DNA of 64,000 nt from positions 11,819 through 75,818 of the IMG/VR virus record IMGVR_UViG_3300044541_000063; one strand, 5' to 3'. A program made the translations under genes and the position numbers. This DNA comes from a virus. Lineage: Duplodnaviria; Caudoviricetes. Numbering within the stretch: the first letter of the stretch is position 1; every line of letters starts with the position of its first letter. Of this stretch, positions 26,430-42,051 are shown one piece after another. The notes under the pieces are model-generated. The model worked only from the letters and a program-made list of their open reading frames with translations, ran no database searches and had not been told where the DNA came from.

Positions 26430-29400
26430 ATGTCTGTGAGCAACGTTCACCCGCTTCCGGGCCGCGTCGACAGTCCTATCCTGGACACGCTCGTCAACTT
26501 GCTGTCGGGTCTCGGCACGGCCAAGGACAAGAGCACGTCGACGCAGTTCACGCTGCAGATACTCGATCCTGGACAGCTGCTAGCCGCGTATCGCGGCGAC
26601 TGGGTAGCGCGCAAGATCATCGACTGTCCAGCGCAGGACTCCACTCGCGAGTGGCGCTCGTGGCAGGCCGACAAGAAGGACATCACCGAGATCGAGAAGA
26701 CCGAGAAGGACCTCAAGCTCCAGTCGAAGGTCAAGGTCGCCATGCAGCGCGCCCGTCTGTGGGGCGGCGCGGCTCTCATCCTCGGCGTGGACCAGGGCTC
26801 GCATGACAAGGAGCTCAAGGTCGATCGCGTCAGGCAGGGTCAGCTGAAGTACGTTCACGTGGTGAACAAGCAGGACATTCAAGTAGACGGCGGCCTCGAC
26901 CTCGACGTCACGTCCGAGTTCTACGGCGAGCCTGTGTCGTACACCGTCAACAGTCCGAAGACCGGCATAGTCAAGATCCATCCGTCGCGCGTCATCAGGT
27001 TCCTGGGCAACGAGATCCCCGACATAAACCTGTCGCAGGACGGATGGGGCGACAGCACGCTGCAGAGTATCTACGACGCGGTGATACAGGCCGGGCAGAC
27101 CGCCGCCAACGTGGCCAGCCTAGTGAACGAGGCCAAGATCGACGTCGTTCAGATACCGGGCCTCATGCAGATGATGGGGACGCAGGAGTACCGCGCGAAG
27201 CTCATCGAGAGGTTCACGCTTGCGAACTCTATGAAGTCCCTCACCAACACTCTGATCCTCGACGGCGAGGAGGAGTGGAACAGGCTCAACGCGTCGTTCG
27301 CAGGTCTGCCAGACATCATCCGCATGTATCTGCTCATGGCCAGTGGTGCCGCTGACATTCCCGCCACGCGTCTACTCGGTCAGTCCTCTTCGGGCCTCAA
27401 CGCCACTGGCCAAGAAGATACTCGCAACTACTACGACAGGCTGGCGAGTGAGCAGACCAACGACCTCACGCCTCGCCTGGACAGGCTCGACGAGGTGCTG
27501 GTACGCAGCACCTTCGGCGACAAGCCCGAGGAGATGACGTACGACTGGAACTCGCTGTGGCAGCTGTCCAAGACCGAGGCCGCAGACGTGGCGGTGAAGA
27601 AGGCCACGGTGTACACGGCAGACGTCAACGCCGGGCTGCTCCCACCGGAGGTCATGCGCGAGGGTCGCGAGAACCAGCTCATCGAGGATCAGGTGTATCC
27701 CGGCCTCGAGCAGGCCATCGACGAGTATGGCCAGCAGAACCTCGACGAGTACAATCAGGCCGTCGTCGCGCAGATGGGCGCGCGCGCCGCTCTCATGGCG
27801 CCGGACGATCCCAACGACCCGAACGGCGGCAAGAAGAAAGCAGCTGCGGCCAAAGCAGAGCTCACTCGCCGCAAGGCTCTACCTCCGCCGCGTCCCCCGG
27901 CTGCGCGCTCGCAGGACTCGCGAGAGAGGGTTGTCTACACGTCCAATCCTAGAGGCGATGGTAGTGACTGGCTCTTCGCGTTCGACAAGGCCAACGCGGC
28001 CATCTGGAAGGACGGAGGTCCTTACCCAGAGCCGAGGTTCGCAGAGGACGAGACCACGCCTCGCAGCCTGTACGTGCGCCGCGACGTGCTCAACGGCGAG
28101 GAGATACTCGCGCACTTCGCAGAGCAGGGCGTCGACGTGAGCGGTGTCGAGCCGGAAGACCTTCACGTCACCGTGTTGTACTCCAGGCAGCCCGTCGACT
28201 GGATCAAGATGGGCGAGTCCAGCTACGGTCAGATCGGGCGCGGCGAGGACATGCCTGAGGGCTGCGACATGTGCGTGCGCGCCGGCGGACCGCGCGTGAT
28301 GGAGGCGTACGGCGTTCCTCCCGACACGCTCGTCATGTGCTTCGCGTCGAGCGCGCTGTGCTGGCGTCACCAGGACATGGTCTATAAGGGCGCGAGCGAG
28401 GACTACGAGTTTAGTCCGCACCTGAGCATCGCTCCGTGGGACGGCACCGACCCGCGCACGTACGAGGCGTTTCAGGGAGAGATCGAACTCGGCCCGGAGA
28501 TCTTCGAGCCGTGCAAGTCGGGCGGCGCCGGGGGCGAGGCGTACGACTACGACCCCTCCGAGCCGCGCGCGCAGGCCGGTACGGCGTTCGGCGGACAGTG
28601 GACACGCGAGGGTGCCGCGGCGGCGCGGCAGTCTCGAATCGACAAGACCCTGGCGACGCGGAGCGAGAGAGCTAAAGGCGACGTTGGCGCGCGTCTCAAG
28701 CGCACGCGCGAGGCCGCAGTGGCCAAGTCCAAGCGCGTCACGGCAGCTGCCGTGCACAAGGCAGTCGCGTTCCTGAAGAACAACGAGAGGCGCTCGAAGA
28801 GCATCGGCGCGCTGGCTGCGTCGCTGTCTGGCATGCTCGCAGGCGTCGACCACGTCACAGAGGCCATGATTCATCAGGCGGTGTCGGACTTCTCGTCTAC
28901 GCTGGGCGTCACTGTCGCGGTGGGACGCACCAAGATGCGCGAGGCCCTCAACAAGGCCATCAAGATACGTCGCGGTCTCACGGGCGACGCGGAGGAGCCT
29001 GAGGCCGAGGACGAGGTTCTCCAGACGCTGCTCGCGCTGCTGAAGATGCTCGACGCCACTGCCGCAGACGCCCTCATCAAGGACTGGCGCGGCACTGTCG
29101 GCGACTACAGTCCAGATCAGCCGCGCGTGCCGAGAGGCAGCGAGGGAGGCGGTCGCTTCGCGACCAGCGGCGGTGCGTACACGGGCGTTCTCGAGAAGGC
29201 CGGCATGTTCGTGAGGTTCGTCAAGGCCAGGCGACTGGAGTCTGGTCGCGGCTACAACGCGTTCTACAAGAAGAACGACTTGAACCCGTCGGGCAATCCG
29301 CAGACCGTAGAGGTCGGTCAGCAGGTGCGCGGCGTGAAGGGCAAGTGGAACAAGAACACCGACCACGCCGGCGACTACGCGGCCGGCTCGGGCTGGCTGC

Positions 29401-29714
29401 TGCTGCAGGAGTTCTCGGAGATGGGTCGGTTCGCCGATCAGTTCTGGAGGGACGCCGCTCAGTTCATGACTCCCGGCGAGTACGAGCGCGCCAAGCCGTA
29501 CTTCAGCACGCGCACCAGGGCATTCGTAGAGGGCTTCCGCGCCACGTACTCTCCGAACGGCAAGGCGTTCGGCCTGAGCAGGGCGCGCACGTCCGAGGTG
29601 TTCGGCAGGGCCACGTCGAACATGTCGTCGGGCATCGACCAGATATTCGCGCCTCCCAAGCCGGGTCTCATCGAGCGCACCGGCGAGCGCATCGCCAAGT
29701 TCTTCGGAGTGTAG
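26430..29714 (+). CDS. Portal protein (DUF1073/HI1409 family) fused to an Acb1-like 2H phosphoesterase and two tagged unknown domains
   Basis: N-terminal ~440 aa portal (YRGDWVARKIID, AADIPATRLLG); LHVTV/PHLSI 2H motifs; two D-Y-x-P-x2-PR..GG-x-W/F tags. Confidence 0.9.
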   Translation: MSVSNVHPLPGRVDSPILDTLVNLLSGLGTAKDKSTSTQFTLQILDPGQLLAAYRGDWVARKIIDCPAQDSTREWRSWQADKKDITEIEKTEKDLKLQSKVKVAMQRARLWGGAALILGVDQGSHDKELKVDRVRQGQLKYVHVVNKQDIQVDGGLDLDVTSEFYGEPVSYTVNSPKTGIVKIHPSRVIRFLGNEIPDINLSQDGWGDSTLQSIYDAVIQAGQTAANVASLVNEAKIDVVQIPGLMQMMGTQEYRAKLIERFTLANSMKSLTNTLILDGEEEWNRLNASFAGLPDIIRMYLLMASGAADIPATRLLGQSSSGLNATGQEDTRNYYDRLASEQTNDLTPRLDRLDEVLVRSTFGDKPEEMTYDWNSLWQLSKTEAADVAVKKATVYTADVNAGLLPPEVMREGRENQLIEDQVYPGLEQAIDEYGQQNLDEYNQAVVAQMGARAALMAPDDPNDPNGGKKKAAAAKAELTRRKALPPPRPPAARSQDSRERVVYTSNPRGDGSDWLFAFDKANAAIWKDGGPYPEPRFAEDETTPRSLYVRRDVLNGEEILAHFAEQGVDVSGVEPEDLHVTVLYSRQPVDWIKMGESSYGQIGRGEDMPEGCDMCVRAGGPRVMEAYGVPPDTLVMCFASSALCWRHQDMVYKGASEDYEFSPHLSIAPWDGTDPRTYEAFQGEIELGPEIFEPCKSGGAGGEAYDYDPSEPRAQAGTAFGGQWTREGAAAARQSRIDKTLATRSERAKGDVGARLKRTREAAVAKSKRVTAAAVHKAVAFLKNNERRSKSIGALAASLSGMLAGVDHVTEAMIHQAVSDFSSTLGVTVAVGRTKMREALNKAIKIRRGLTGDAEEPEAEDEVLQTLLALLKMLDATAADALIKDWRGTVGDYSPDQPRVPRGSEGGGRFATSGGAYTGVLEKAGMFVRFVKARRLESGRGYNAFYKKNDLNPSGNPQTVEVGQQVRGVKGKWNKNTDHAGDYAAGSGWLLLQEFSEMGRFADQFWRDAAQFMTPGEYERAKPYFSTRTRAFVEGFRATYSPNGKAFGLSRARTSEVFGRATSNMSSGIDQIFAPPKPGLIERTGERIAKFFGV

Positions 29715-30992: not shown

Positions 30993-32492
30993 GTGCTACT
31001 GACTTCGCACCACCGCTGCGTCCGGCCGCGCCTTGGGGTCGCGGTCTCAGACGCGGCGCGCGCGCGAACCGACCCGACGGGCACTGCTCCTATCGCCTCC
31101 CGATGGGACGCAGAGTTCGCCAGGAGGTTCGCGCGCGTCAAGCGCGTGCTGCACGAGGTGATCGTGACACGCGACACGCTCGGAATAAGCGACGATCTCA
31201 AGAAGAGGGTAGACGCATCAGTCGGGGGAGCGACCAGGGCGCAGCGCGCGGCGCGCGCCCTGGACCTCGTTCGCTCGGCGGTGCACTCCGAGATTCTGGG
31301 CTCCCCCGGCTACGCCGACTCGTGGCAGAACAAGTTCGTCGCGATGGCCGTGACCAAGGGCGTCACCGACGCGTACCGGCGCATGAAGCAGGCCGGCATG
31401 GACGTGACCCTGGAGCTCACGGTGGACGTCGGCATAGGCCAGTCGGCGCAGCGGCGCGCGGACTTCATCGCTCAGCAGAGCTACGATCTGCTCGAGGGCA
31501 TCGACGCCGACATGGCGGCGCAGATGCAGGACATCATTCAGCAGGGTCTCCTGGACGGCAAGAGTCCGCAGCAGATAGCGCGCGAGCTTGACCAGGAGCT
31601 GGACATCGGTCGCACGCGCGCGCGCACCATAGCGCGCACCGAGACCATCGGCGCTCACGCCGACGCAACGCTCGACTCGTACGAGGAGGGCGGCATCGAG
31701 GGCGTTCAGGCCGAGGTGGAGTTCGCCACGGCCGGTGACGACAACGTCTGTCCGCAGTGTCAAGCGCTGGAGGGCAGTACCTACACCATCGAGGACGCGC
31801 GCGACGTCATTCCAGTGCACCCGAACTGTCGGTGCGCTTGGTTGCCGGTGATCGCCAGCACCGCGGACGCAGTCACCATAGACTACGACCCGAGCGAGCC
31901 GCGCGTGCCGGCCGGCAGTGCCGAGGGCGGCGAGTGGACCAGCGAGGGCGGTGCTGGCAGCGCGCCGGGAGTCGAGGGCAGCGGCGGCGACGCGTCTAAG
32001 CAGAGAGCGCTCGACGTGGCCAAGGAGCTCAAGTTCTCTCCCAAGAAGATGGAGTTCTCCGACGAGAACAAAAAGTTCTCAGTGGCCGGCAAGCGCATGA
32101 CGAAGGGCGGCGAGTACGACCCGGCTACCGGGAAGGTGACGTTCTTCTCGCACAACGTGAGTCCGGAGGACGCCGAGCTGATAGCGGCGCACGAGATCAC
32201 CCACTCGATGTATCACGACTACTTCGGCTCCGAGGGATACCAGGAGCCGCTGATACATCTGTTCGGCAGCTACGCCACGTTCGCCAGGGAGGGCGGCGTC
32301 GACGAGTACAGCAATCAGTGGTGGAAGGCTGTCGGCGAGGGAAGGGCCAGACCTGAGCAGGCCATAAACGAGACGCTCGCGTCCATGGCCTCCATTCAGT
32401 ACACCACCGGGAAGGTGGTCGGCGGCCCCGAGCATCAGGCGCTGCTCAAGAGAATACAGCGCTATCGCGGCGTGAGCGGGACCAAGAAGTGA
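30993..32492 (+). CDS. MuF/SPP1 gp7-like head morphogenesis protein with a tagged C-terminal zincin metallopeptidase
   Basis: DPTGT start, IARTE, ATAGDDNVCPQC..HPNCRC; tag DYDPSEPRVPAG..GGEW; AHEITH..NETLA. Confidence 0.9.
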   Translation: MLLTSHHRCVRPRLGVAVSDAARARTDPTGTAPIASRWDAEFARRFARVKRVLHEVIVTRDTLGISDDLKKRVDASVGGATRAQRAARALDLVRSAVHSEILGSPGYADSWQNKFVAMAVTKGVTDAYRRMKQAGMDVTLELTVDVGIGQSAQRRADFIAQQSYDLLEGIDADMAAQMQDIIQQGLLDGKSPQQIARELDQELDIGRTRARTIARTETIGAHADATLDSYEEGGIEGVQAEVEFATAGDDNVCPQCQALEGSTYTIEDARDVIPVHPNCRCAWLPVIASTADAVTIDYDPSEPRVPAGSAEGGEWTSEGGAGSAPGVEGSGGDASKQRALDVAKELKFSPKKMEFSDENKKFSVAGKRMTKGGEYDPATGKVTFFSHNVSPEDAELIAAHEITHSMYHDYFGSEGYQEPLIHLFGSYATFAREGGVDEYSNQWWKAVGEGRARPEQAINETLASMASIQYTTGKVVGGPEHQALLKRIQRYRGVSGTKK

Positions 32493-34894
32493 GTGTTCGT
32501 CGCACCAAGGTCAACGGCGAGAGCGTTCTGCTGGCGCAGGTCAGTCCGACTCTGTGGAAGGTCGTGTATCCAGACGGCCGCGCGGTGTTTCTGGTTCCTG
32601 AGGCGGAGGCGAACGATGGCATCAGCTGGCACGAGGAGGATCACCCGCGAGGCGAGGGCGGCAAGTTCGCCACCGTCGGGCACGAGTCTCTTACTGGGCA
32701 GGAGCAGCAGAGTATCTACTACTACGCGCGACAGGCGTATCACGGACTGAACCGCAATCTTCGCCTCGGTCTGGGACTCAGCGAGCAGCAGGAAATTTGG
32801 AAGCGCGACCTCGACTCGGCGCTGGAGAAGTCGACGCTTGCGCAGGACATGACGGTCTATCGTGGCTTCGGCAACATGAAGCTCATCCGCGACATGAAGG
32901 AGGGAGACGTTCTCCGCAACGCCGCGTACACGTCGACTGCTCCAGACGCGAGGACCGCAACCTCGTTCAAGGACTTCAGCGAGGGTCTCCTGGAGATCTC
33001 GCTGCCGGCCGGCACCAGGGCGCTCGACGTGCATCGGGTCTCGAGCATGGAGCCGGAGATTCTGCTTCCTCGCGACACTTCGCTGAGGTACGTGGGCAGA
33101 GGTGAGCCGGCCGGTGTTGGCAGCGCGCCTGCGCGCACGTATAAGTTTGAGCTCGTGGCCAGCAGCGTCAGGGACTGGAGTCCCTTCCAGCCTCGCGTGC
33201 CGAAGGGTCAGTCTGGCGGCGGGCAGTGGTCCGGGGAGAACCTGACCAAGGCCGAGAGGGCCGAGGTGCGATACTACACTGGCGACGGGTTCGAGCACGT
33301 CAACTCGACGCTGCGGCAGGGCGAGGCCGGCATGCTCGACCGACTGCATCTGCTGGACAGCGCCGTGGCCAAGTCGGTCATAGACAAGAGCATCACGACG
33401 TATCGCGGCGTCAACAGCGCCGAGTTCACCGAGAAGCTCGACTCGCTGCAGCCGGGCGAGACCATCACCGACAGGGCGTTCACGTCTACGTCGGGCAGCT
33501 TTCTGTCGGCGGCCATGTACGGTGGAGTAGGATCCCCGACCATGGAGATCAGGATTCCGTCTGGCAGCAGCGTGCTCTACGCCGAGAGCATGAGCGCCAA
33601 CTCCGGAATAGGCGAGGAGGAGTACCTTCTGCCCCGCGACTCGACGTTCAGGTACGTCGGCTCGAGGACTGTGGGCGGCGGTGCCGGCGCCTCGAAGGGA
33701 AGCAAGGTCTACACGTTCGACCTAGTGCCGCGCGTTGTCAAGGACTACGACCCGAGCGAGCCGCGCGTACCGGCCGGGCAGCCGGGCGGCGGACAGTGGC
33801 AAGGCCAGAATCTGGGCGATGACGAGAAGAAGCAGGTTCGTTTCTACACGCGCAATGGATACACTCCGATTAATAAGTCCTTGCGCACTGGTACCGGGCC
33901 AGAATACCTGAAGGACGTCGTCGCGACGATAGACAGTGCCATCGCGAAGTCGGTGCTGTCGAGCGACACTGTCGTCTATCGTGGCGTTAACGCAGTGGGA
34001 TTCGTTAGCGCTTTAGGTGCCCTCAAGCCGGGAGACACGATCACTGACTCAGCATACGTGTCGACTTCTGGTTCGTTGGCGTCCGCTGCGACGTTCGCAG
34101 GAACATACAACACGGTGATGGAGGTCAGGCTTCCGGCAGGCAGCAACGCACTCTATGTCGAGGAGTTCAGCGGAAGCAGTGGTCAGGAAGAAGATGAATA
34201 TATTCTGCCGCGCGGCACTAAGTTTCAGTACGTTACCAGCAGGGTCACCAGGACGAAGAGGACTATCTACACGTTCGACCTCGTGCCGCGCGGCGCGGCC
34301 GACTGGAACCCATTCCAGCCGCGCGTTCCCGCGGGGCAGCACGGCGGCGGCGAGTGGACCGAGGGCACCAGCGGCACGGCAACCGGATCTCTCGTCGGCG
34401 GCAATCCCAAGAAGGGCTTCGACCCGAAGCACGTCGACGCGCTCAAGCAGTACGCTGCCAGCATCTATCAGCCGGTGAACGAGGGTCTGCGCAACAAGAC
34501 GAAGCTGCGGACCCAGGAGGAGCAGGTCGTTTTGGCACTCGACGAGGCGTTCGAGCGCAATCAGCGTACCACCGAGGTGATGCAGCTGTTTCGCGCGGCG
34601 GGCGAGGAGTTCGCGGCCTACGTGGACGCACTCAAGGTCGGCGACAACCTGATAGACGAGGGATTCGCGTCGACCACCACCGACGAGAGACTGGCGCGCT
34701 CGTTCCTCAGCGGGCAGCCGGGCGAGAAGAAGGTGATGGTTGAGATCGTCCTTCCGAAGGACTCGAAGGCCATCGACACGTCGCCGTTCAATCCCTTCAA
34801 GGGAGAGAACGAGGTGCTGCTGCCGCGCAACACCACGTTCAAGTATCTCGGCATGGAGCGAGACGTGTATCGCTTCAGGGCCAATCCAAGGTAG
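32489..34894 (+). CDS. Polyprotein of four tandem ADP-ribosyltransferase (VIP2/C3/Alt-like, R-S-E) domains, each preceded by the tag
   Basis: YRG/YRG/YRG/FRA, TST/TST/VST/AST and EPE/EEE/EDE/ENE-x-LLPR motifs. Confidence 0.9.
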   Translation: MSVRRTKVNGESVLLAQVSPTLWKVVYPDGRAVFLVPEAEANDGISWHEEDHPRGEGGKFATVGHESLTGQEQQSIYYYARQAYHGLNRNLRLGLGLSEQQEIWKRDLDSALEKSTLAQDMTVYRGFGNMKLIRDMKEGDVLRNAAYTSTAPDARTATSFKDFSEGLLEISLPAGTRALDVHRVSSMEPEILLPRDTSLRYVGRGEPAGVGSAPARTYKFELVASSVRDWSPFQPRVPKGQSGGGQWSGENLTKAERAEVRYYTGDGFEHVNSTLRQGEAGMLDRLHLLDSAVAKSVIDKSITTYRGVNSAEFTEKLDSLQPGETITDRAFTSTSGSFLSAAMYGGVGSPTMEIRIPSGSSVLYAESMSANSGIGEEEYLLPRDSTFRYVGSRTVGGGAGASKGSKVYTFDLVPRVVKDYDPSEPRVPAGQPGGGQWQGQNLGDDEKKQVRFYTRNGYTPINKSLRTGTGPEYLKDVVATIDSAIAKSVLSSDTVVYRGVNAVGFVSALGALKPGDTITDSAYVSTSGSLASAATFAGTYNTVMEVRLPAGSNALYVEEFSGSSGQEEDEYILPRGTKFQYVTSRVTRTKRTIYTFDLVPRGAADWNPFQPRVPAGQHGGGEWTEGTSGTATGSLVGGNPKKGFDPKHVDALKQYAASIYQPVNEGLRNKTKLRTQEEQVVLALDEAFERNQRTTEVMQLFRAAGEEFAAYVDALKVGDNLIDEGFASTTTDERLARSFLSGQPGEKKVMVEIVLPKDSKAIDTSPFNPFKGENEVLLPRNTTFKYLGMERDVYRFRANPR

Positions 34895-37060: not shown

Positions 37061-38734
37061 GTGGCCGGATCAGTCTACCGCGTACCGCCGCCGGTCTTCG
37101 TCGGCGGGCAGCAGCCCTATCAAGCAAGGGACCTGTCGCCCGCCTTCGAGGCGGTGCCTGTAGACGCGCCTCCAGTCAGGAGGGCGCAGCCGCCGTTTCA
37201 CTCGTCGTGGTGGGCCGTCGCGCTGTCGCCTCAGCAGCGCTCGGACTCTGACATGTCGTCCGGGATACCGGGGCAGTCGGTTGACAATCCGCCAGCTGCT
37301 CGCTCGACCATTCCATCGTCGGCGTGGTGGCTGAGCACTCCAGCGCCGACGCAGCTACGAGATCTCTCGCCTGGAATTCCTGGCCAGTCGGTGGACAATC
37401 CACCGGCCGCGCGCTCTGCCGTGCCGCCCTCGGCGTGGTGGCTCACGGTACCAACGCCGACGCAGCTGCGCGACATGGCTCCGGGAATCCCGGGTCAGTC
37501 GGTAGACAATCCGCCCGGCCTGCAGGCGCGCACTCCTGCTCCGCAGCCGGTTCCGTTCTTCGACGTTCAGCGCCGCTATCTCGTGCAGGAGTTCGTCGCC
37601 GCTGCGGCGGACAGCACGCCCTTCGCGCGGGTCGTTGACAGTGTAATTCGCTCGTGGCAGCGCGAGCAGCCGCTTCCGACACTGCCGAGACTGCTGAGTC
37701 CCTCCATCACCGCGGTGCCGGAGGACTCGCCGATTCCGATGCACGCCGGTCGCACGCCGCTGCAGGTGCAGCTCACGGCGTGGTTCGCGGGCGTGCTGCC
37801 GTACCGACCGGCTCAGTTCGTCACGCACACTGCGGCACCTCCTGGATGGTCGGTCGACGACCCTCCACGCTTCAGGGCGTTCGTCGTTCCGCCGCAGCCG
37901 CCGACTCCGCTTCAGGTGCAGTACCCGAAGCTGGTTCAGGAGAGCGTGGCTGCAGCTGCGGCCGATCAGTCGTACGCGCGCGAGACTCTGGCGCTGCGGT
38001 GGTGGGTGGTCCAGGCGGCTCCCCCGGTGCTGCCGCGCCTGCTCTCGCCCGGCGTGCCGGGGCAGTCCGCAGACGCGCCGCCTCCTGCGCGACTGCAGCA
38101 GCCGGCGGCCGTGCACTACGCCGCTCAGCCGCTCGCGCCAGTGCGGCAGCAGCTGTCGCCCGGCATACCGGGCCAGTCGGTGGACCCGCCGCCGTCCATA
38201 GTCTCGCGCATGCCCGCGCGCGCGTGGTACGACGGTCTGTATCCCGGCGCGCAGCGCCAGCCGGGGGCTGCGGCGCTTGCTCAGCAGGCGCAGGTGGACT
38301 TTGCGCCCGTGTCGCTGCGAGGTGCGGGCTGGAGCGTCGCTCACTGGTTCGCGCCGTACGTGGCGCCGCAGCGGCATCGGCCGCTGTTTCCTGCGGCTCT
38401 CGCGGTGCGGGTCGACGATCCGCCCTTCGACGCTCGGCGTCTGGGGCGGCTGGCCAGCATCATCGCGCGGGCGCAGATACCGACGCCCGACAGGGTCTAT
38501 CTGCGCTACGAGGTGCAGGAGGGACCGGCGTTTACTCTGCTGACGCTGGTCTGCGGCAGCATCACGATCAGCGCCTCGACGAACGCACTCTTGTCGACCG
38601 CGCCAGCCGTGCTGGCTGCTACGTCTACGACACCAGTCGCTTCTGCCGCTCCCTCGTCCGCGCCGGCAACTTCGGCGGAGACGTCGACCGAGCCGGCAGT
38701 GGGCGGCGAGCCAGGAATAGAGATCTGCGAGTGA
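37061..38734 (+). CDS. Pro-rich repetitive protein (PGIPGQSVDNPP repeats)
   Basis: AGGAG RBS before GTG; tandem ~37-aa units plus degenerate copies. Confidence 0.7.
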   Translation: MAGSVYRVPPPVFVGGQQPYQARDLSPAFEAVPVDAPPVRRAQPPFHSSWWAVALSPQQRSDSDMSSGIPGQSVDNPPAARSTIPSSAWWLSTPAPTQLRDLSPGIPGQSVDNPPAARSAVPPSAWWLTVPTPTQLRDMAPGIPGQSVDNPPGLQARTPAPQPVPFFDVQRRYLVQEFVAAAADSTPFARVVDSVIRSWQREQPLPTLPRLLSPSITAVPEDSPIPMHAGRTPLQVQLTAWFAGVLPYRPAQFVTHTAAPPGWSVDDPPRFRAFVVPPQPPTPLQVQYPKLVQESVAAAAADQSYARETLALRWWVVQAAPPVLPRLLSPGVPGQSADAPPPARLQQPAAVHYAAQPLAPVRQQLSPGIPGQSVDPPPSIVSRMPARAWYDGLYPGAQRQPGAAALAQQAQVDFAPVSLRGAGWSVAHWFAPYVAPQRHRPLFPAALAVRVDDPPFDARRLGRLASIIARAQIPTPDRVYLRYEVQEGPAFTLLTLVCGSITISASTNALLSTAPAVLAATSTTPVASAAPSSAPATSAETSTEPAVGGEPGIEICE

Positions 38735-39288: not shown

Positions 39289-39752
39289 GCGAGCCGACCG
39301 CGTTCGCGCAGCACTCGACGCGTGATCTGAAGAACATGCTTCTCGGCGAGGTGTCGAACTTCGGCGAGAAGCCCGACGACGAGCTGCAGCGCGCGCTCGG
39401 TGTCGCCTACAAGATCGTCGGCGCGCGCGGGCGCGGTATCGAAGACCTAAGCCTCCTGCTGGCGCGCGCGGTGGTGCGCCTCAGCAGCGGCAAGGTGGAG
39501 GAGGTCGAGCAGGAGCGCCAGCGCGACGCCCTCCGCGTCGAGGGCGCGGTGCACGCCACCGCGCGCGAGGCTCAGCTGGCCGAGGCGCGCGAGAAGATCA
39601 GGACGATGATGCGCCAGCACGCGCACGTGTCGTCGGAGAGGGAGCAGGTCATCGAGCTGATGCTGGCCATGCTCTCTAACAAAGACCATCGCATCAGCGA
39701 TCACCCCGAGTGGATCTTGGAGCTCGGGAGACTGTCGGGAGCCACAGAATGA
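39285..39752 (+). CDS. Helical hypothetical protein
   Basis: Coupled ORF; coiled-coil character. Confidence 0.6.
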   Translation: MSEPTAFAQHSTRDLKNMLLGEVSNFGEKPDDELQRALGVAYKIVGARGRGIEDLSLLLARAVVRLSSGKVEEVEQERQRDALRVEGAVHATAREAQLAEAREKIRTMMRQHAHVSSEREQVIELMLAMLSNKDHRISDHPEWILELGRLSGATE

Positions 39753-40150
39753 ACAGGCGCAACTTTCTGCTCAAGGGAATGGCGGCGCTGGCACTGCCGG
39801 CAATTGCCGAGCCGTTTCAGCCGTTGCTGCTAGACGGGACCGGAGACTACGCGACAGTAATCTGCGACGACAGGTATCTGTTCGGTGGTGACTGGACCCT
39901 CGACATGTGGATCAGAAGGCCGAGCGAAGAGAACACGGTGGTCTCAGACCTGACTCTTACGTTCGACCTTCCTGCCGGGAAGGTTCTTGACTGGGACAGC
40001 GTGCGCGTAGTCATTCAGAAGCACGAGAAGGAAGTTCCGGTCGACTCGGACTGGCATCACCTGTGTGCGCACGGCGGCCGCTTCTTCGTCGACGGAGTCG
40101 AGGAGCGTCCACTCGTGATAACGGACGAGAGCGTCGCAGAGACGGCGTGA
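39749..40150 (+). CDS. Protein with a Tat-like signal and a miniature LamG-like domain
   Basis: MNRRNFLLKGMAALALPAIA; LDGTGDY, DWTLDMWI, WHHL, FVDGV. Confidence 0.6.
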   Translation: MNRRNFLLKGMAALALPAIAEPFQPLLLDGTGDYATVICDDRYLFGGDWTLDMWIRRPSEENTVVSDLTLTFDLPAGKVLDWDSVRVVIQKHEKEVPVDSDWHHLCAHGGRFFVDGVEERPLVITDESVAETA

Positions 40151-40248
40151 CGGCGGTGAGGTGGCTCGCAGGTCTCCTCAGGCGACTCTTCAGGCGCAAG
40201 CCCTCGTACGAGTGGATGCGCGACGACTATCCGTGGAGGTGACCAGAC

Positions 40249-42051
40249 ATGAATAAGACCAAGCGCGCCAAGGCAGGCGACAACTGGGACGAGAGCGCTC
40301 ACCCGCGCGCGCCGAAGGGCGGCGCCGGGGGAGGGCAGTTCGCAGGAGGCCAGACTGCGGGCGGCATCGACCAGGGCGAGGTCGGCTCCGGCTGGCATCC
40401 AGAGAAGGACAACACCTACGCCGGCCGCAAGCCGGACGAGGCGAAGTTCGGGCGCAGCAACGAAGACTTCAGCCTGACCGACGAGGACGAGCAGTTCGTC
40501 GAGGACCACGGCGAGGCGTTCGTGCCGGTGCTCAACGAGCTGTTCCAGGAGTACGATGCCGCGCCTGCAGACGTCGAGAATTTCATGGAAGAGATGAACC
40601 TCAGCGACAGCACCGACACGGCGGCAGCCGACGTCCTCACGGCGTTTCACAACAGCTACGTCGGCACGTTCGAGGACACCGATGCGGCGGCGGAGAACTT
40701 CATTCACGAGACGTACCCGCGCCTACCGAAGGCGTTCACCGACGCCATCAGCAGAAGCGACCTCAGCGACAGTCTGTTCTACAACAAGGGCTCGCCGTAC
40801 GCTGCTGTCGAGTCTGACAGTGGCGAGTACATGGTCTTCAAGAAGCCGGCGTCGATGGTCTCGCGAACCAAGGACGCGAAGCCGCTGGCGTTCGAGGTCG
40901 ACAGCGTGAACCTGGAGAACACTCTGCAGCTGATCGGAGTCAACGACGACGGCGCCGCGCTGGTGCTCGACGAGGGCGCGAACATCCACCGCACGGCTGA
41001 CGGCTATCTGGCGGCCTTCCCCCGGATAGCCAGAACCGGAATTCAGGTCTATCGCGGCTACGAGATGGGCGCTCCCGACAAGGACAAGGTGCGCATCTAC
41101 AGGCCGGAGAGCGAGGTCTTCGCGCCCGACAGCCTGCGGTCGTACGCGCACAAGCCCGTGACCAACGACCATCCGAAGGAGGCGGTCACCAAGGACAATT
41201 GGCGCAAGTACGCCGTCGGCAACATGGCAGACGAGATCATGCGCGACGGCGGGTTCGTTCGCATTCCTATGATGATCTCTGACGGCGACGCCATCCAGGA
41301 CGTCGAGGACGGCAAGCGTGAACTCTCGCTTGGCTACACGATGGACCTCGACATGACGCCGGGCAAGACGGAGGACGGCGAGTCCTACGACGGGGTCATG
41401 AGAAACATACGAGCCAATCATCTGGCGCTGGTCACCGCCGCCAGAGGTGGAAAGGAACTCAGGGTCGGTGACTCAGGAGAAGGAGCTATCATGAAGAAGA
41501 TCGTAGTTGACGGCAACACCATCGAGGTCGACGACGTTGCGGCCGTCATCGTTCCGAAGCACATCGCGATGCTGGAGAAGAGCACCGCCGACGCAGCCAC
41601 CGCCCTCAAGGTCGCGCAGGACAAGACGGCTGCCGACACGGCTACCATCGCCACCCTGACGGCCGAGAACGCGACCCTGGTGAAGAAGGTCGCCGACGCG
41701 AAGCTCTCGCCGCAGCAGATCGAGCAGCTGGTGCGCGACCGCGCCGTGGTCGTCACTCAGGCGCGCGCCGTGCTGCCGACCGTCGTCACCGACAGCCGCG
41801 AGCTCTGCGACATTCGTCGTCAGGTCGTGGACGCTGCCATGGGTGCCGCGGCCAAGGGCTGGAACGACGAGCAGGTCGCGTCGTCCTTCGCCGTTCTCAC
41901 CAAGGACGTCGACACCAGGGCGAACGAGACTCAGGACAGTCTCAGGACTGCTCTCAGCCAGCCTGGTCCTCGAGTCGACGCGCGCGACGCGGCGTACGGC
42001 GAGTACGAGAACAAGCTGACCAACGCCTGGAAGAAGCCGGTCGCCGCCTAG
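40249..42051 (+). CDS. Head maturation protease/scaffold (DUF2213) with an N-terminal tag and ArdA-like acidic domain
   Basis: IARTGIQVY, VYRP-like RIYRPESEVF, KPVTNDHP, ELSLGY, NHLALV..ARGG; coiled-coil scaffold C-terminus; N-terminal WDESAHPRAPKG..GGQF. Confidence 0.9.
   Translation: MNKTKRAKAGDNWDESAHPRAPKGGAGGGQFAGGQTAGGIDQGEVGSGWHPEKDNTYAGRKPDEAKFGRSNEDFSLTDEDEQFVEDHGEAFVPVLNELFQEYDAAPADVENFMEEMNLSDSTDTAAADVLTAFHNSYVGTFEDTDAAAENFIHETYPRLPKAFTDAISRSDLSDSLFYNKGSPYAAVESDSGEYMVFKKPASMVSRTKDAKPLAFEVDSVNLENTLQLIGVNDDGAALVLDEGANIHRTADGYLAAFPRIARTGIQVYRGYEMGAPDKDKVRIYRPESEVFAPDSLRSYAHKPVTNDHPKEAVTKDNWRKYAVGNMADEIMRDGGFVRIPMMISDGDAIQDVEDGKRELSLGYTMDLDMTPGKTEDGESYDGVMRNIRANHLALVTAARGGKELRVGDSGEGAIMKKIVVDGNTIEVDDVAAVIVPKHIAMLEKSTADAATALKVAQDKTAADTATIATLTAENATLVKKVADAKLSPQQIEQLVRDRAVVVTQARAVLPTVVTDSRELCDIRRQVVDAAMGAAAKGWNDEQVASSFAVLTKDVDTRANETQDSLRTALSQPGPRVDARDAAYGEYENKLTNAWKKPVAA

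Follow-up and report, generated by a model that had tools for sequence, protein, structure and literature searches.

An acidic ArdA-like domain fused in front of the DUF2213 head protease/scaffold protein of an uncultured phage

Why would a phage head-assembly protein begin with a segment that looks like an antirestriction protein? This question is raised by a 600-amino-acid (aa) open reading frame (ORF) in a 64,000-nucleotide stretch of viral DNA (the window), which comprises bases 11819-75818 of a complete, uncultured 75.8-kb IMG/VR phage genome with direct terminal repeats. An earlier note on this DNA had pointed to a very acidic segment of about 125 aa between a peptide tag and the DUF2213 domain of the protein, and had read it as an ArdA-like DNA mimic. 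Our analysis supports an ArdA-like acidic domain fused before the DUF2213 head protease/scaffold, since profile-profile comparison, a Pfam match on an orthologue and two structure searches agree on ArdA. The parts of the gene are as follows, with the domain called mini-ArdA for reasons given below.

40249..42051, + strand: whole gene, consisting of tag, mini-ArdA, DUF2213 protease/scaffold core and helical scaffold tail (600-aa ORF, P0001; Pfam and PHROG matches)
40279..40341, + strand: N-terminal peptide tag DNWDESAHPRAPKGGAGGGQF (aa 11-31), the eighth copy of a motif of about 20 aa in this phage
40342..40479, + strand: Gly-rich, poorly conserved linker (aa 32-77), with a predicted local distance difference test (pLDDT) score <50 at aa 61-74 of the model
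40480..40656, + strand: four-helix sub-domain (aa 78-136) that may correspond to ArdA domain 2 (AlphaFold2 helices)
40633..40848, + strand: alpha/beta sub-domain like ArdA domain 3 (aa 129-200), with the VF motif at its end (YMVFKKP), from hhalign, the ArdA hidden Markov model (HMM) and AlphaFold2
40849..40980, + strand: variable linker joining mini-ArdA to DUF2213 (aa 201-244), a candidate region for processing (low identity and gaps against the related protein P0003)
40990..41475, + strand: DUF2213 (Pa193_gp24 family) core, annotated as head maturation protease (Pfam PF09979, phrog_530)
41491..42048, + strand: helical tail resembling a scaffold (aa 415-600), which may also be translated separately from an in-frame start within the gene (internal Shine-Dalgarno sequence and ATG)

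Resemblance of the acidic segment to ArdA

The start codon of the ORF is well supported by the sequence, with GGAGG at 40235-40239, 9 nt 5' of the ATG at 40249. Translation of 40462-40845 (+) gives a 128-aa segment, residues 72-199 of the ORF, which ends in ...GEYMVFKK and matches exactly the peptide quoted in the earlier note. This segment contains 30 Asp/Glu (23%) against 6 Lys/Arg and has a pI of 4.05. The corresponding values for R46 ArdA are 35 Asp/Glu against 9 Lys/Arg in 169 aa and a pI of 4.07, and the acidic segment shares the strong negative charge of ArdA.

A HMMER (phmmer) search of 1.8 billion cluster representatives returned two true relatives, a 691-aa protein with the identical fusion arrangement (P0003) and a 174-aa stand-alone protein (P0005, E 6e-5), besides a spurious repeat protein (P0004). 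Seven further fusions (P0128, P0129, P0130, P0132, P0133, P0134 and P0135), 62-75% identical in the protease part, were found by searching with that part, and the acidic domain stands directly before DUF2213 in 8 related metagenomic phage proteins.

For comparison with ArdA, we built an 81-sequence alignment and HMM from the R46 ArdA seed (annotated plasmid NC_003292), enterobacterial ArdAs and 80 IMG/VR ArdA loci. The window domain scored 13.8 bits against this HMM (p 2.3e-6, unfiltered hmmsearch, a single planned test), and P0003 and P0005 scored 16.8 and 23.2 bits. Among composition-matched shuffles of the same three sequences (300 per sequence), 0/900 reached the observed scores, with a maximum of 7.3 bits. 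Judged by sequence, the ArdA resemblance of the window domain is thus greater than chance.

Profile-profile comparison located this resemblance. The 10-member family alignment matched the 81-member ArdA alignment with an hhalign probability of 94.8% (P 5.5e-8, 64 columns), and the match spans the whole of ArdA domain 3. It starts at the f-x-x-Y-x-G-x-[FY]-[DE] helix and runs up to the terminal VF, placing VF on VF. An earlier hhalign run with three family members and 15 enterobacterial ArdAs had given 3.6% (P 0.012) in the correct register, and is superseded by the deeper alignments. The VF motif, which is essential in ArdA (PMC2731889), is present in 10/10 family members as [VI]F[KR]. In addition, the Pfam ArdA model PF07275 matched P0134 (5e-5, 24.4 bits), P0133 (2.7e-3, 18.8 bits) and P0005 (0.016, 16.3 bits).

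The sequence match stops short of a complete ArdA. Matches to the ArdA HMM begin at model position 83 at the earliest and the PF07275 match on P0133 at model position 60, and the motifs of ArdA domain 1 (YVGTYxKYNxG...GxW) were not found upstream in the window protein. The residues upstream of domain 3 align to ArdA without confidence. By sequence, homology to ArdA is limited to domain 3 (about 65 aa), where the family has I/V at the position equivalent to Ile138. The ArdA C-terminal pattern described in the earlier note therefore holds for domain 3, including the VF motif, but domain 1 is absent and the Pfam threshold is not reached.

Predicted structure extends the comparison to the helices in front. 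An AlphaFold2 model of the domain, computed from a three-sequence alignment and starting at aa 61, contains four helices (model residues 18-27, 29-42, 46-55 and 66-76) and, after them, a three-strand, three-helix unit, a layout that fits the published description of ArdA domains 2 and 3 (PMC2731889). VIA-align against 48,161 PDB representative chains ranked ArdA (2W82) at the top, as the sole match with Z of at least 5 (Z 5.8, rmsd 3.8 Å, 108 residues, model 15-139 against chain 3-165). In a Foldseek search of predicted viral structures (BFVD), 10 of the 17 top matches were phage antirestriction/ArdA proteins (E 0.02-0.2; probability 0.33-0.99, eight at 0.89 or above). Several of these are only 110-130 aa long; therefore short phage ArdAs exist. 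The AlphaFold2 model of the stand-alone P0005 was poor (pLDDT 51), and the structure search with it was uninformative. No usable match to the domain was found in the ESM Atlas. Each structural result is weak alone, and the agreement of these predictions with the sequence result carries the weight.

These results bear on the possibility that an acidic, low-information linker, evolutionarily unrelated to ArdA, resembles it by chance. Such a linker would fit the lack of a Pfam match for the window sequence, the 3.6% obtained by hhalign with three members and the modest structural Z score. It is hard to reconcile with the ten-member hhalign result, with the match of Pfam's independent ArdA model to an orthologue at 5e-5, with the first rank of ArdA among all PDB chains compared and the dominance of antirestriction proteins in the BFVD list, or with the failure of every shuffle to reach the observed scores. 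We strongly disfavour this explanation and regard it as very improbable.

The segment is best described as a mini-ArdA, which is domains 2+3-like, lacks domain 1 and scores below the Pfam threshold. We chose this label because the sequence homology covers domain 3 only, the helices resemble domain 2 by fold and domain 1 is missing; the resemblance of the preceding helices to ArdA domain 2 is a possible one, seen in the predicted fold only. In ArdA itself, domain 1 is dispensable for antirestriction and the methyltransferase core is bound through domains 2 and 3 (McMahon et al., PMC2731889). Domains 2 and 3 alone suffice for anti-restriction in ColIb-P9 ArdA (PMC2731889). A PF07275 search of the phage genome did not reveal a second, canonical ArdA.

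The fusion partner, its relatives and the head module

The DUF2213 domain (PF09979) occupies aa 248-409 of the window protein (Pfam E 1.9e-53), and phrog_530, 'head maturation protease', covers aa 245-597 at 8e-91. The protease name comes from PHROG, and the only support that we found for it is that four residues (H308, D345, S360 and H391) are invariant in 118 DUF2213 homologues. We compared DUF2213 by hhalign with S78 domains that are fused to it elsewhere. The aligned stretch includes the invariant Ser, and the P of 0.036 is too weak to call homology. A phmmer search of PDB sequences with the whole protein found a designed helical barrel only, and searches with the domain, by phmmer and by a three-sequence profile, found noise only.

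Pa193 gp24, the namesake of PF09979, is present in mature virions, as detected by mass spectrometry (PMC11456595). On the inner side of the capsid, its residues 286-326 attach to the five-fold vertices, and the part of gp24 that binds there is helical (PMC11456595). In the window protein, a strong internal Shine-Dalgarno sequence, AGGAGAAGGAG, at 41474-41484 lies 6 nt before the in-frame ATG at 41491 (Met415), where the helical tail starts. L001 also has GGAG and ATG at this place, and Met occupies the column in 47/131 aligned rows. The ATG at 41491 may thus start a nested scaffold product, as in lambda C/Nu3, which would make the cargo-bearing full-length form a minority species.

Conservation along the fusion was assessed against P0003. 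Identity is 66% in the domain and 75% in its domain 3, compared with 36% in the linker at aa 61-77 and 43% in the linker at aa 201-244 (10 gapped positions); it is 82.5% in DUF2213. The mini-ArdA domain is more conserved than both flanking linkers, suggesting that it is under selection.

The relatives differ in what else they carry in front of DUF2213. Additional N-terminal domains are ChaB (P0128 and P0133) and DUF6582 (P0130 and P0134), and P0003 and P0134 contain a second, unknown tagged domain. In P0127, which is 73% identical, a different tagged domain replaces the mini-ArdA. An N-terminal extension of more than 100 aa is found in 31/120 DUF2213 proteins, most having no extension. Among the homologues listed, about a dozen belonging to other phages carry an S78 prohead protease domain in the slot. 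An S78 protein must be loaded into procapsids. On these comparisons, DUF2213 proteins seem to use their N-terminus as a slot for variable cargo.

Other searches for relatives gave little. The N-terminal 244 aa had no real match by tblastn in 50,697 phage records, and domain pattern scans found only the P0005 contig in IMG/VR and nothing in GTDB genomes. No close relatives of the protease part were found in an IMG/VR scan, and a word-index search with P0005 returned itself only.

The tag belongs to a wider pattern in the head module. Its consensus, D-[YW]-[DSN]-P-x-[EQ]-P-R-[VA]-P-x-G-x2-G-G-G-[QE]-[WF] (about 20 aa), occurs in 8 copies in four head genes, and every copy precedes a module. An N-terminal leader common to several cargo proteins is therefore present in this phage. 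The neighbours of the gene encode the portal (1094 aa), a MuF-like protein, an ADP-ribosyltransferase (ART) protein of 801 aa, the major capsid protein and a cement protein; the genes with tags are the following.

26430-29714, + strand: portal, 1094 aa (PF06381), with an Acb1 2H phosphoesterase domain, directed against the cyclic-oligonucleotide-based antiphage signalling system (CBASS), at aa 546-696 (E 3.2e-19); tag copies at 28545 and 29103 in its C-terminal extension
31881: tag copy in the MuF-like protein
32489-34894, + strand: 801-aa protein with four ART (PF03496) stretches, each behind a tag; tag copies at 32615, 33173, 33743 and 34301
40279: tag copy in the gene studied here

Beyond Acb1, the portal carries two more tagged C-terminal modules of unknown fold. 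The tag is absent from 80/80 canonical phage ArdA genes, and term searches of the survey of polyvalent proteins by Iyer et al. 2017 (PMC5512222) found no mention of it. Loading, cleavage and a recombination joint for module exchange are candidate roles for the tag. Several conflict-related domains on one polypeptide among the portal-terminase head genes are a mark of polyvalent proteins, and the window protein combines the tag, the ArdA-like domain and DUF2213 in this way.

A syntenic relative (L085) has a portal-Acb1 fusion, a MuF-ART fusion and a DUF6582-tag-mini-ArdA-DUF2213 fusion. In an unrelated HK97-like phage (L002 8361-10525), the P0005 gene, with the tag variant FDPNQARDDHGRW, sits between the portal and the S78 protease. 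The portal of this phage is extended at its C-terminus by about 130 aa, and the extension opens with the tag variant GGFDPLQERDDHGRW. The domain thus lies in the head module in two unrelated phages, which supports a capsid context.

Two further ORFs of the region were recorded. A 146-aa ORF just upstream of the gene, 39710-40150 (+), begins with MNRRNFLLKGMAALALPAIA, which resembles a twin-arginine (Tat) signal, an odd start for a head-module gene; it has a weak Laminin_G_3 match (E 0.022). A putative proline-rich ORF of 557 aa at 37061-38734 (+) contains repeated LSPGIPGQSVDNPP units, has no PHROG family and overlaps long ORFs in other frames.

The relatives also bear on whether the acidic domain serves assembly itself. 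Here, it would have been co-opted in the scaffold to stand in for DNA, offsetting the basic charge of the inner capsid surface or excluding DNA until maturation, and would later be degraded or expelled without ever acting in the next host. The domain does belong to the scaffold polypeptide, an acidic turn of Pa193 gp24 forms salt bridges with basic capsid residues (PMC11456595), and neither a cleavage site nor a tag separates the domain from DUF2213. However, most DUF2213 proteins lack an N-terminal extension, long ones being confined to the minority counted above, and assembly therefore does not require the domain. In P0127, the place of the mini-ArdA is taken by another tagged domain, and in a phage with a different protease the domain is a stand-alone tagged gene. 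Furthermore, its companions in the slot are cargo of the anti-defence or effector type. An assembly role is, in our assessment, quite unlikely.

Proposed delivery and target

The reading that we favour, at slightly better than even confidence, is a scaffold-borne minimal ArdA that is loaded into the capsid, cut free, ejected and active as a DNA mimic in the new host. The gene product would be a head-assembly protein with an N-terminal passenger, made up of a four-helix bundle and an ArdA domain-3 unit. Because mini-ArdA and the DUF2213 protease/scaffold are one chain, translation would carry the passenger into the procapsid interior by co-assembly. At maturation, the passenger would probably be released by a cut in the variable linker at aa 201-244. 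The freed protein, folded, acidic and of about 15 kDa, would remain confined next to the DNA until infection and then pass out through the tail, like the T4 internal proteins. In the new host, it would act immediately as a DNA mimic, occupying the DNA-binding groove of the methyltransferase cores of type I restriction-modification (R-M) enzymes before any phage gene is expressed. The methyltransferases of bacteriophage exclusion (BREX) type might be a further target. The mini-ArdA may dimerise; a homodimer prediction for the domain scored 0.02, which gives no verdict on dimerisation. Loading of the mini-ArdA into the capsid, already inferred in the earlier note together with injection, is strengthened though not proved by the head-module context and is likely; its injection and its target are inferred.

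A wider proposal, which we hold more tentatively and at somewhat less than even confidence, takes the DUF2213 N-terminus as a general cargo slot (S78, ChaB, DUF6582, zinc ribbons and mini-ArdA) and the PR...GGGQW peptide as a common loading/processing signal that links it with portal-, MuF- and ART-borne cargo in a single modular system of anti-defence delivered by the virion. In this clade, each capsid would then contain many copies of mini-ArdA, a DNA mimic made in advance, and neither type I R-M nor BREX could act from DNA entry onward.

Several observations weigh against scaffold-borne delivery of an ArdA. The window domain had no family match in Pfam (E up to 1), PHROG, NCBIfam or PADLOC, and the window copy, P0134, P0133 and P0005 all stay below the 27-bit Pfam gathering score for ArdA. 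ArdA Tyr137, a residue of the dimer interface, is not conserved in the family. AlphaFold2 was confident in 1/5 models (pLDDT 71.9), and Z 5.8 falls in the range where common folds can match. The fold check against ArdA that the earlier note had proposed succeeded in part, with 2W82 at the top by VIA-align and antirestriction matches in BFVD, but Foldseek against the PDB gave nothing at E <=0.001. Regarding release, no tag and no recognisable cleavage site were found between mini-ArdA and DUF2213, the protease activity of DUF2213 is known by annotation only, and no recognisable prohead protease of the S78, S77 or ClpP type was found in the complete phage genome.

The loss of domain 1 and the change at Tyr137 could also mean that a delivered DNA mimic acts on something other than type I R-M. 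A type III enzyme and a BREX methyltransferase of the PglX type are candidates, as are other DNA-binding proteins of the host or its defences. Both the altered dimer interface and the absence of domain 1, the proposed mimic of the DNA contacted by HsdR, would then reflect a new target. The DNA mimic Ocr also inhibits BREX, as cited in PMC12373910. On the other hand, the sufficiency of domains 2 and 3 in ColIb-P9 ArdA shows that a type I inhibitor can do without domain 1, and no positive evidence points to any of the alternatives. We consider retargeting rather unlikely.

Known systems and meaning of the fusion

The closest relative in sequence is ArdA itself (PF07275; Tn916 Orf18, PDB 2W82; R46 and ColIb-P9). 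The phage segment shares with it domain 3, the terminal VF, the f-x-x-Y-x-G-x-[FY]-[DE] helix and a pI of about 4, and by prediction the fold of domains 2 and 3. In contrast to ArdA, the segment is without domain 1, has not kept Tyr137 and lies below the Pfam threshold. Moreover, ArdA is a free early or leading-region protein, whereas the phage segment is the N-terminal part of a tagged head-assembly protein of the late operon.

The earlier note had likened the arrangement to P1 DarA/DarB. This likeness holds for head-packaged protection against type I restriction, but DarB, a large methylase-helicase, gives its protection to DNA in cis and is loaded through DarA/Hdf rather than by a scaffold fusion, and its fold and mechanism are unrelated. 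The closer functional analogues are T4 Ip1, Ip2 and Ip3, which carry a capsid-targeting sequence, are processed by gp21 and are injected as inhibitors of GmrSD type IV enzymes. The proposed logic is shared, with a ready-made inhibitor that enters through the scaffold core, is processed and is injected, although for the phage domain loading and injection are inferred only. Unlike the phage domain, the T4 proteins are separate small genes with a 10-aa leader and type IV targets, and have no sequence relation to it.

Cargo on MuF or portal proteins and injected restriction inhibitors (T4 Ip1-3, P1 Dar) were already known (PMC5512222, PMC12373910). The polyvalent proteins and MuF/portal-effector fusions of Iyer et al. 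2017 (PMC5512222) place anti-defence or effector domains on head proteins, as here. ArdA is already known there as a polyvalent-protein domain, found mainly in conjugative-element proteins of Firmicutes together with ArdC-N, and term searches of that survey found no fusion of ArdA to a prohead protease/scaffold (PMC5512222). In our literature searches, we met no paper on an ArdA domain that is fused to a prohead protease/scaffold or encoded as tagged cargo beside one, in agreement with the earlier note, to which the fusion was not known as a described arrangement. T7 Ocr, like the proposed mini-ArdA, is an acidic phage DNA mimic directed against type I R-M and BREX, but its fold is unrelated, and it is the product of the first early gene after entry rather than carried in the capsid.

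ArdA and Ocr are textbook DNA mimics that are expressed only after DNA entry, which leaves a vulnerable interval. If the favoured reading is true, a capsid-borne ArdA would close this interval. With it, the most widespread family of antirestriction proteins would join the T4 Ip and P1 Dar strategy of injected restriction inhibitors. A further consequence would be that the scaffold/protease can carry cargo, like the portal and MuF proteins, so that the N-terminal extensions of DUF2213 proteins would be a place to find further virion-delivered anti-defence domains. As a natural minimal ArdA of domains 2 and 3 (about 125 aa), the mini-ArdA could help to define the requirements for methyltransferase binding.

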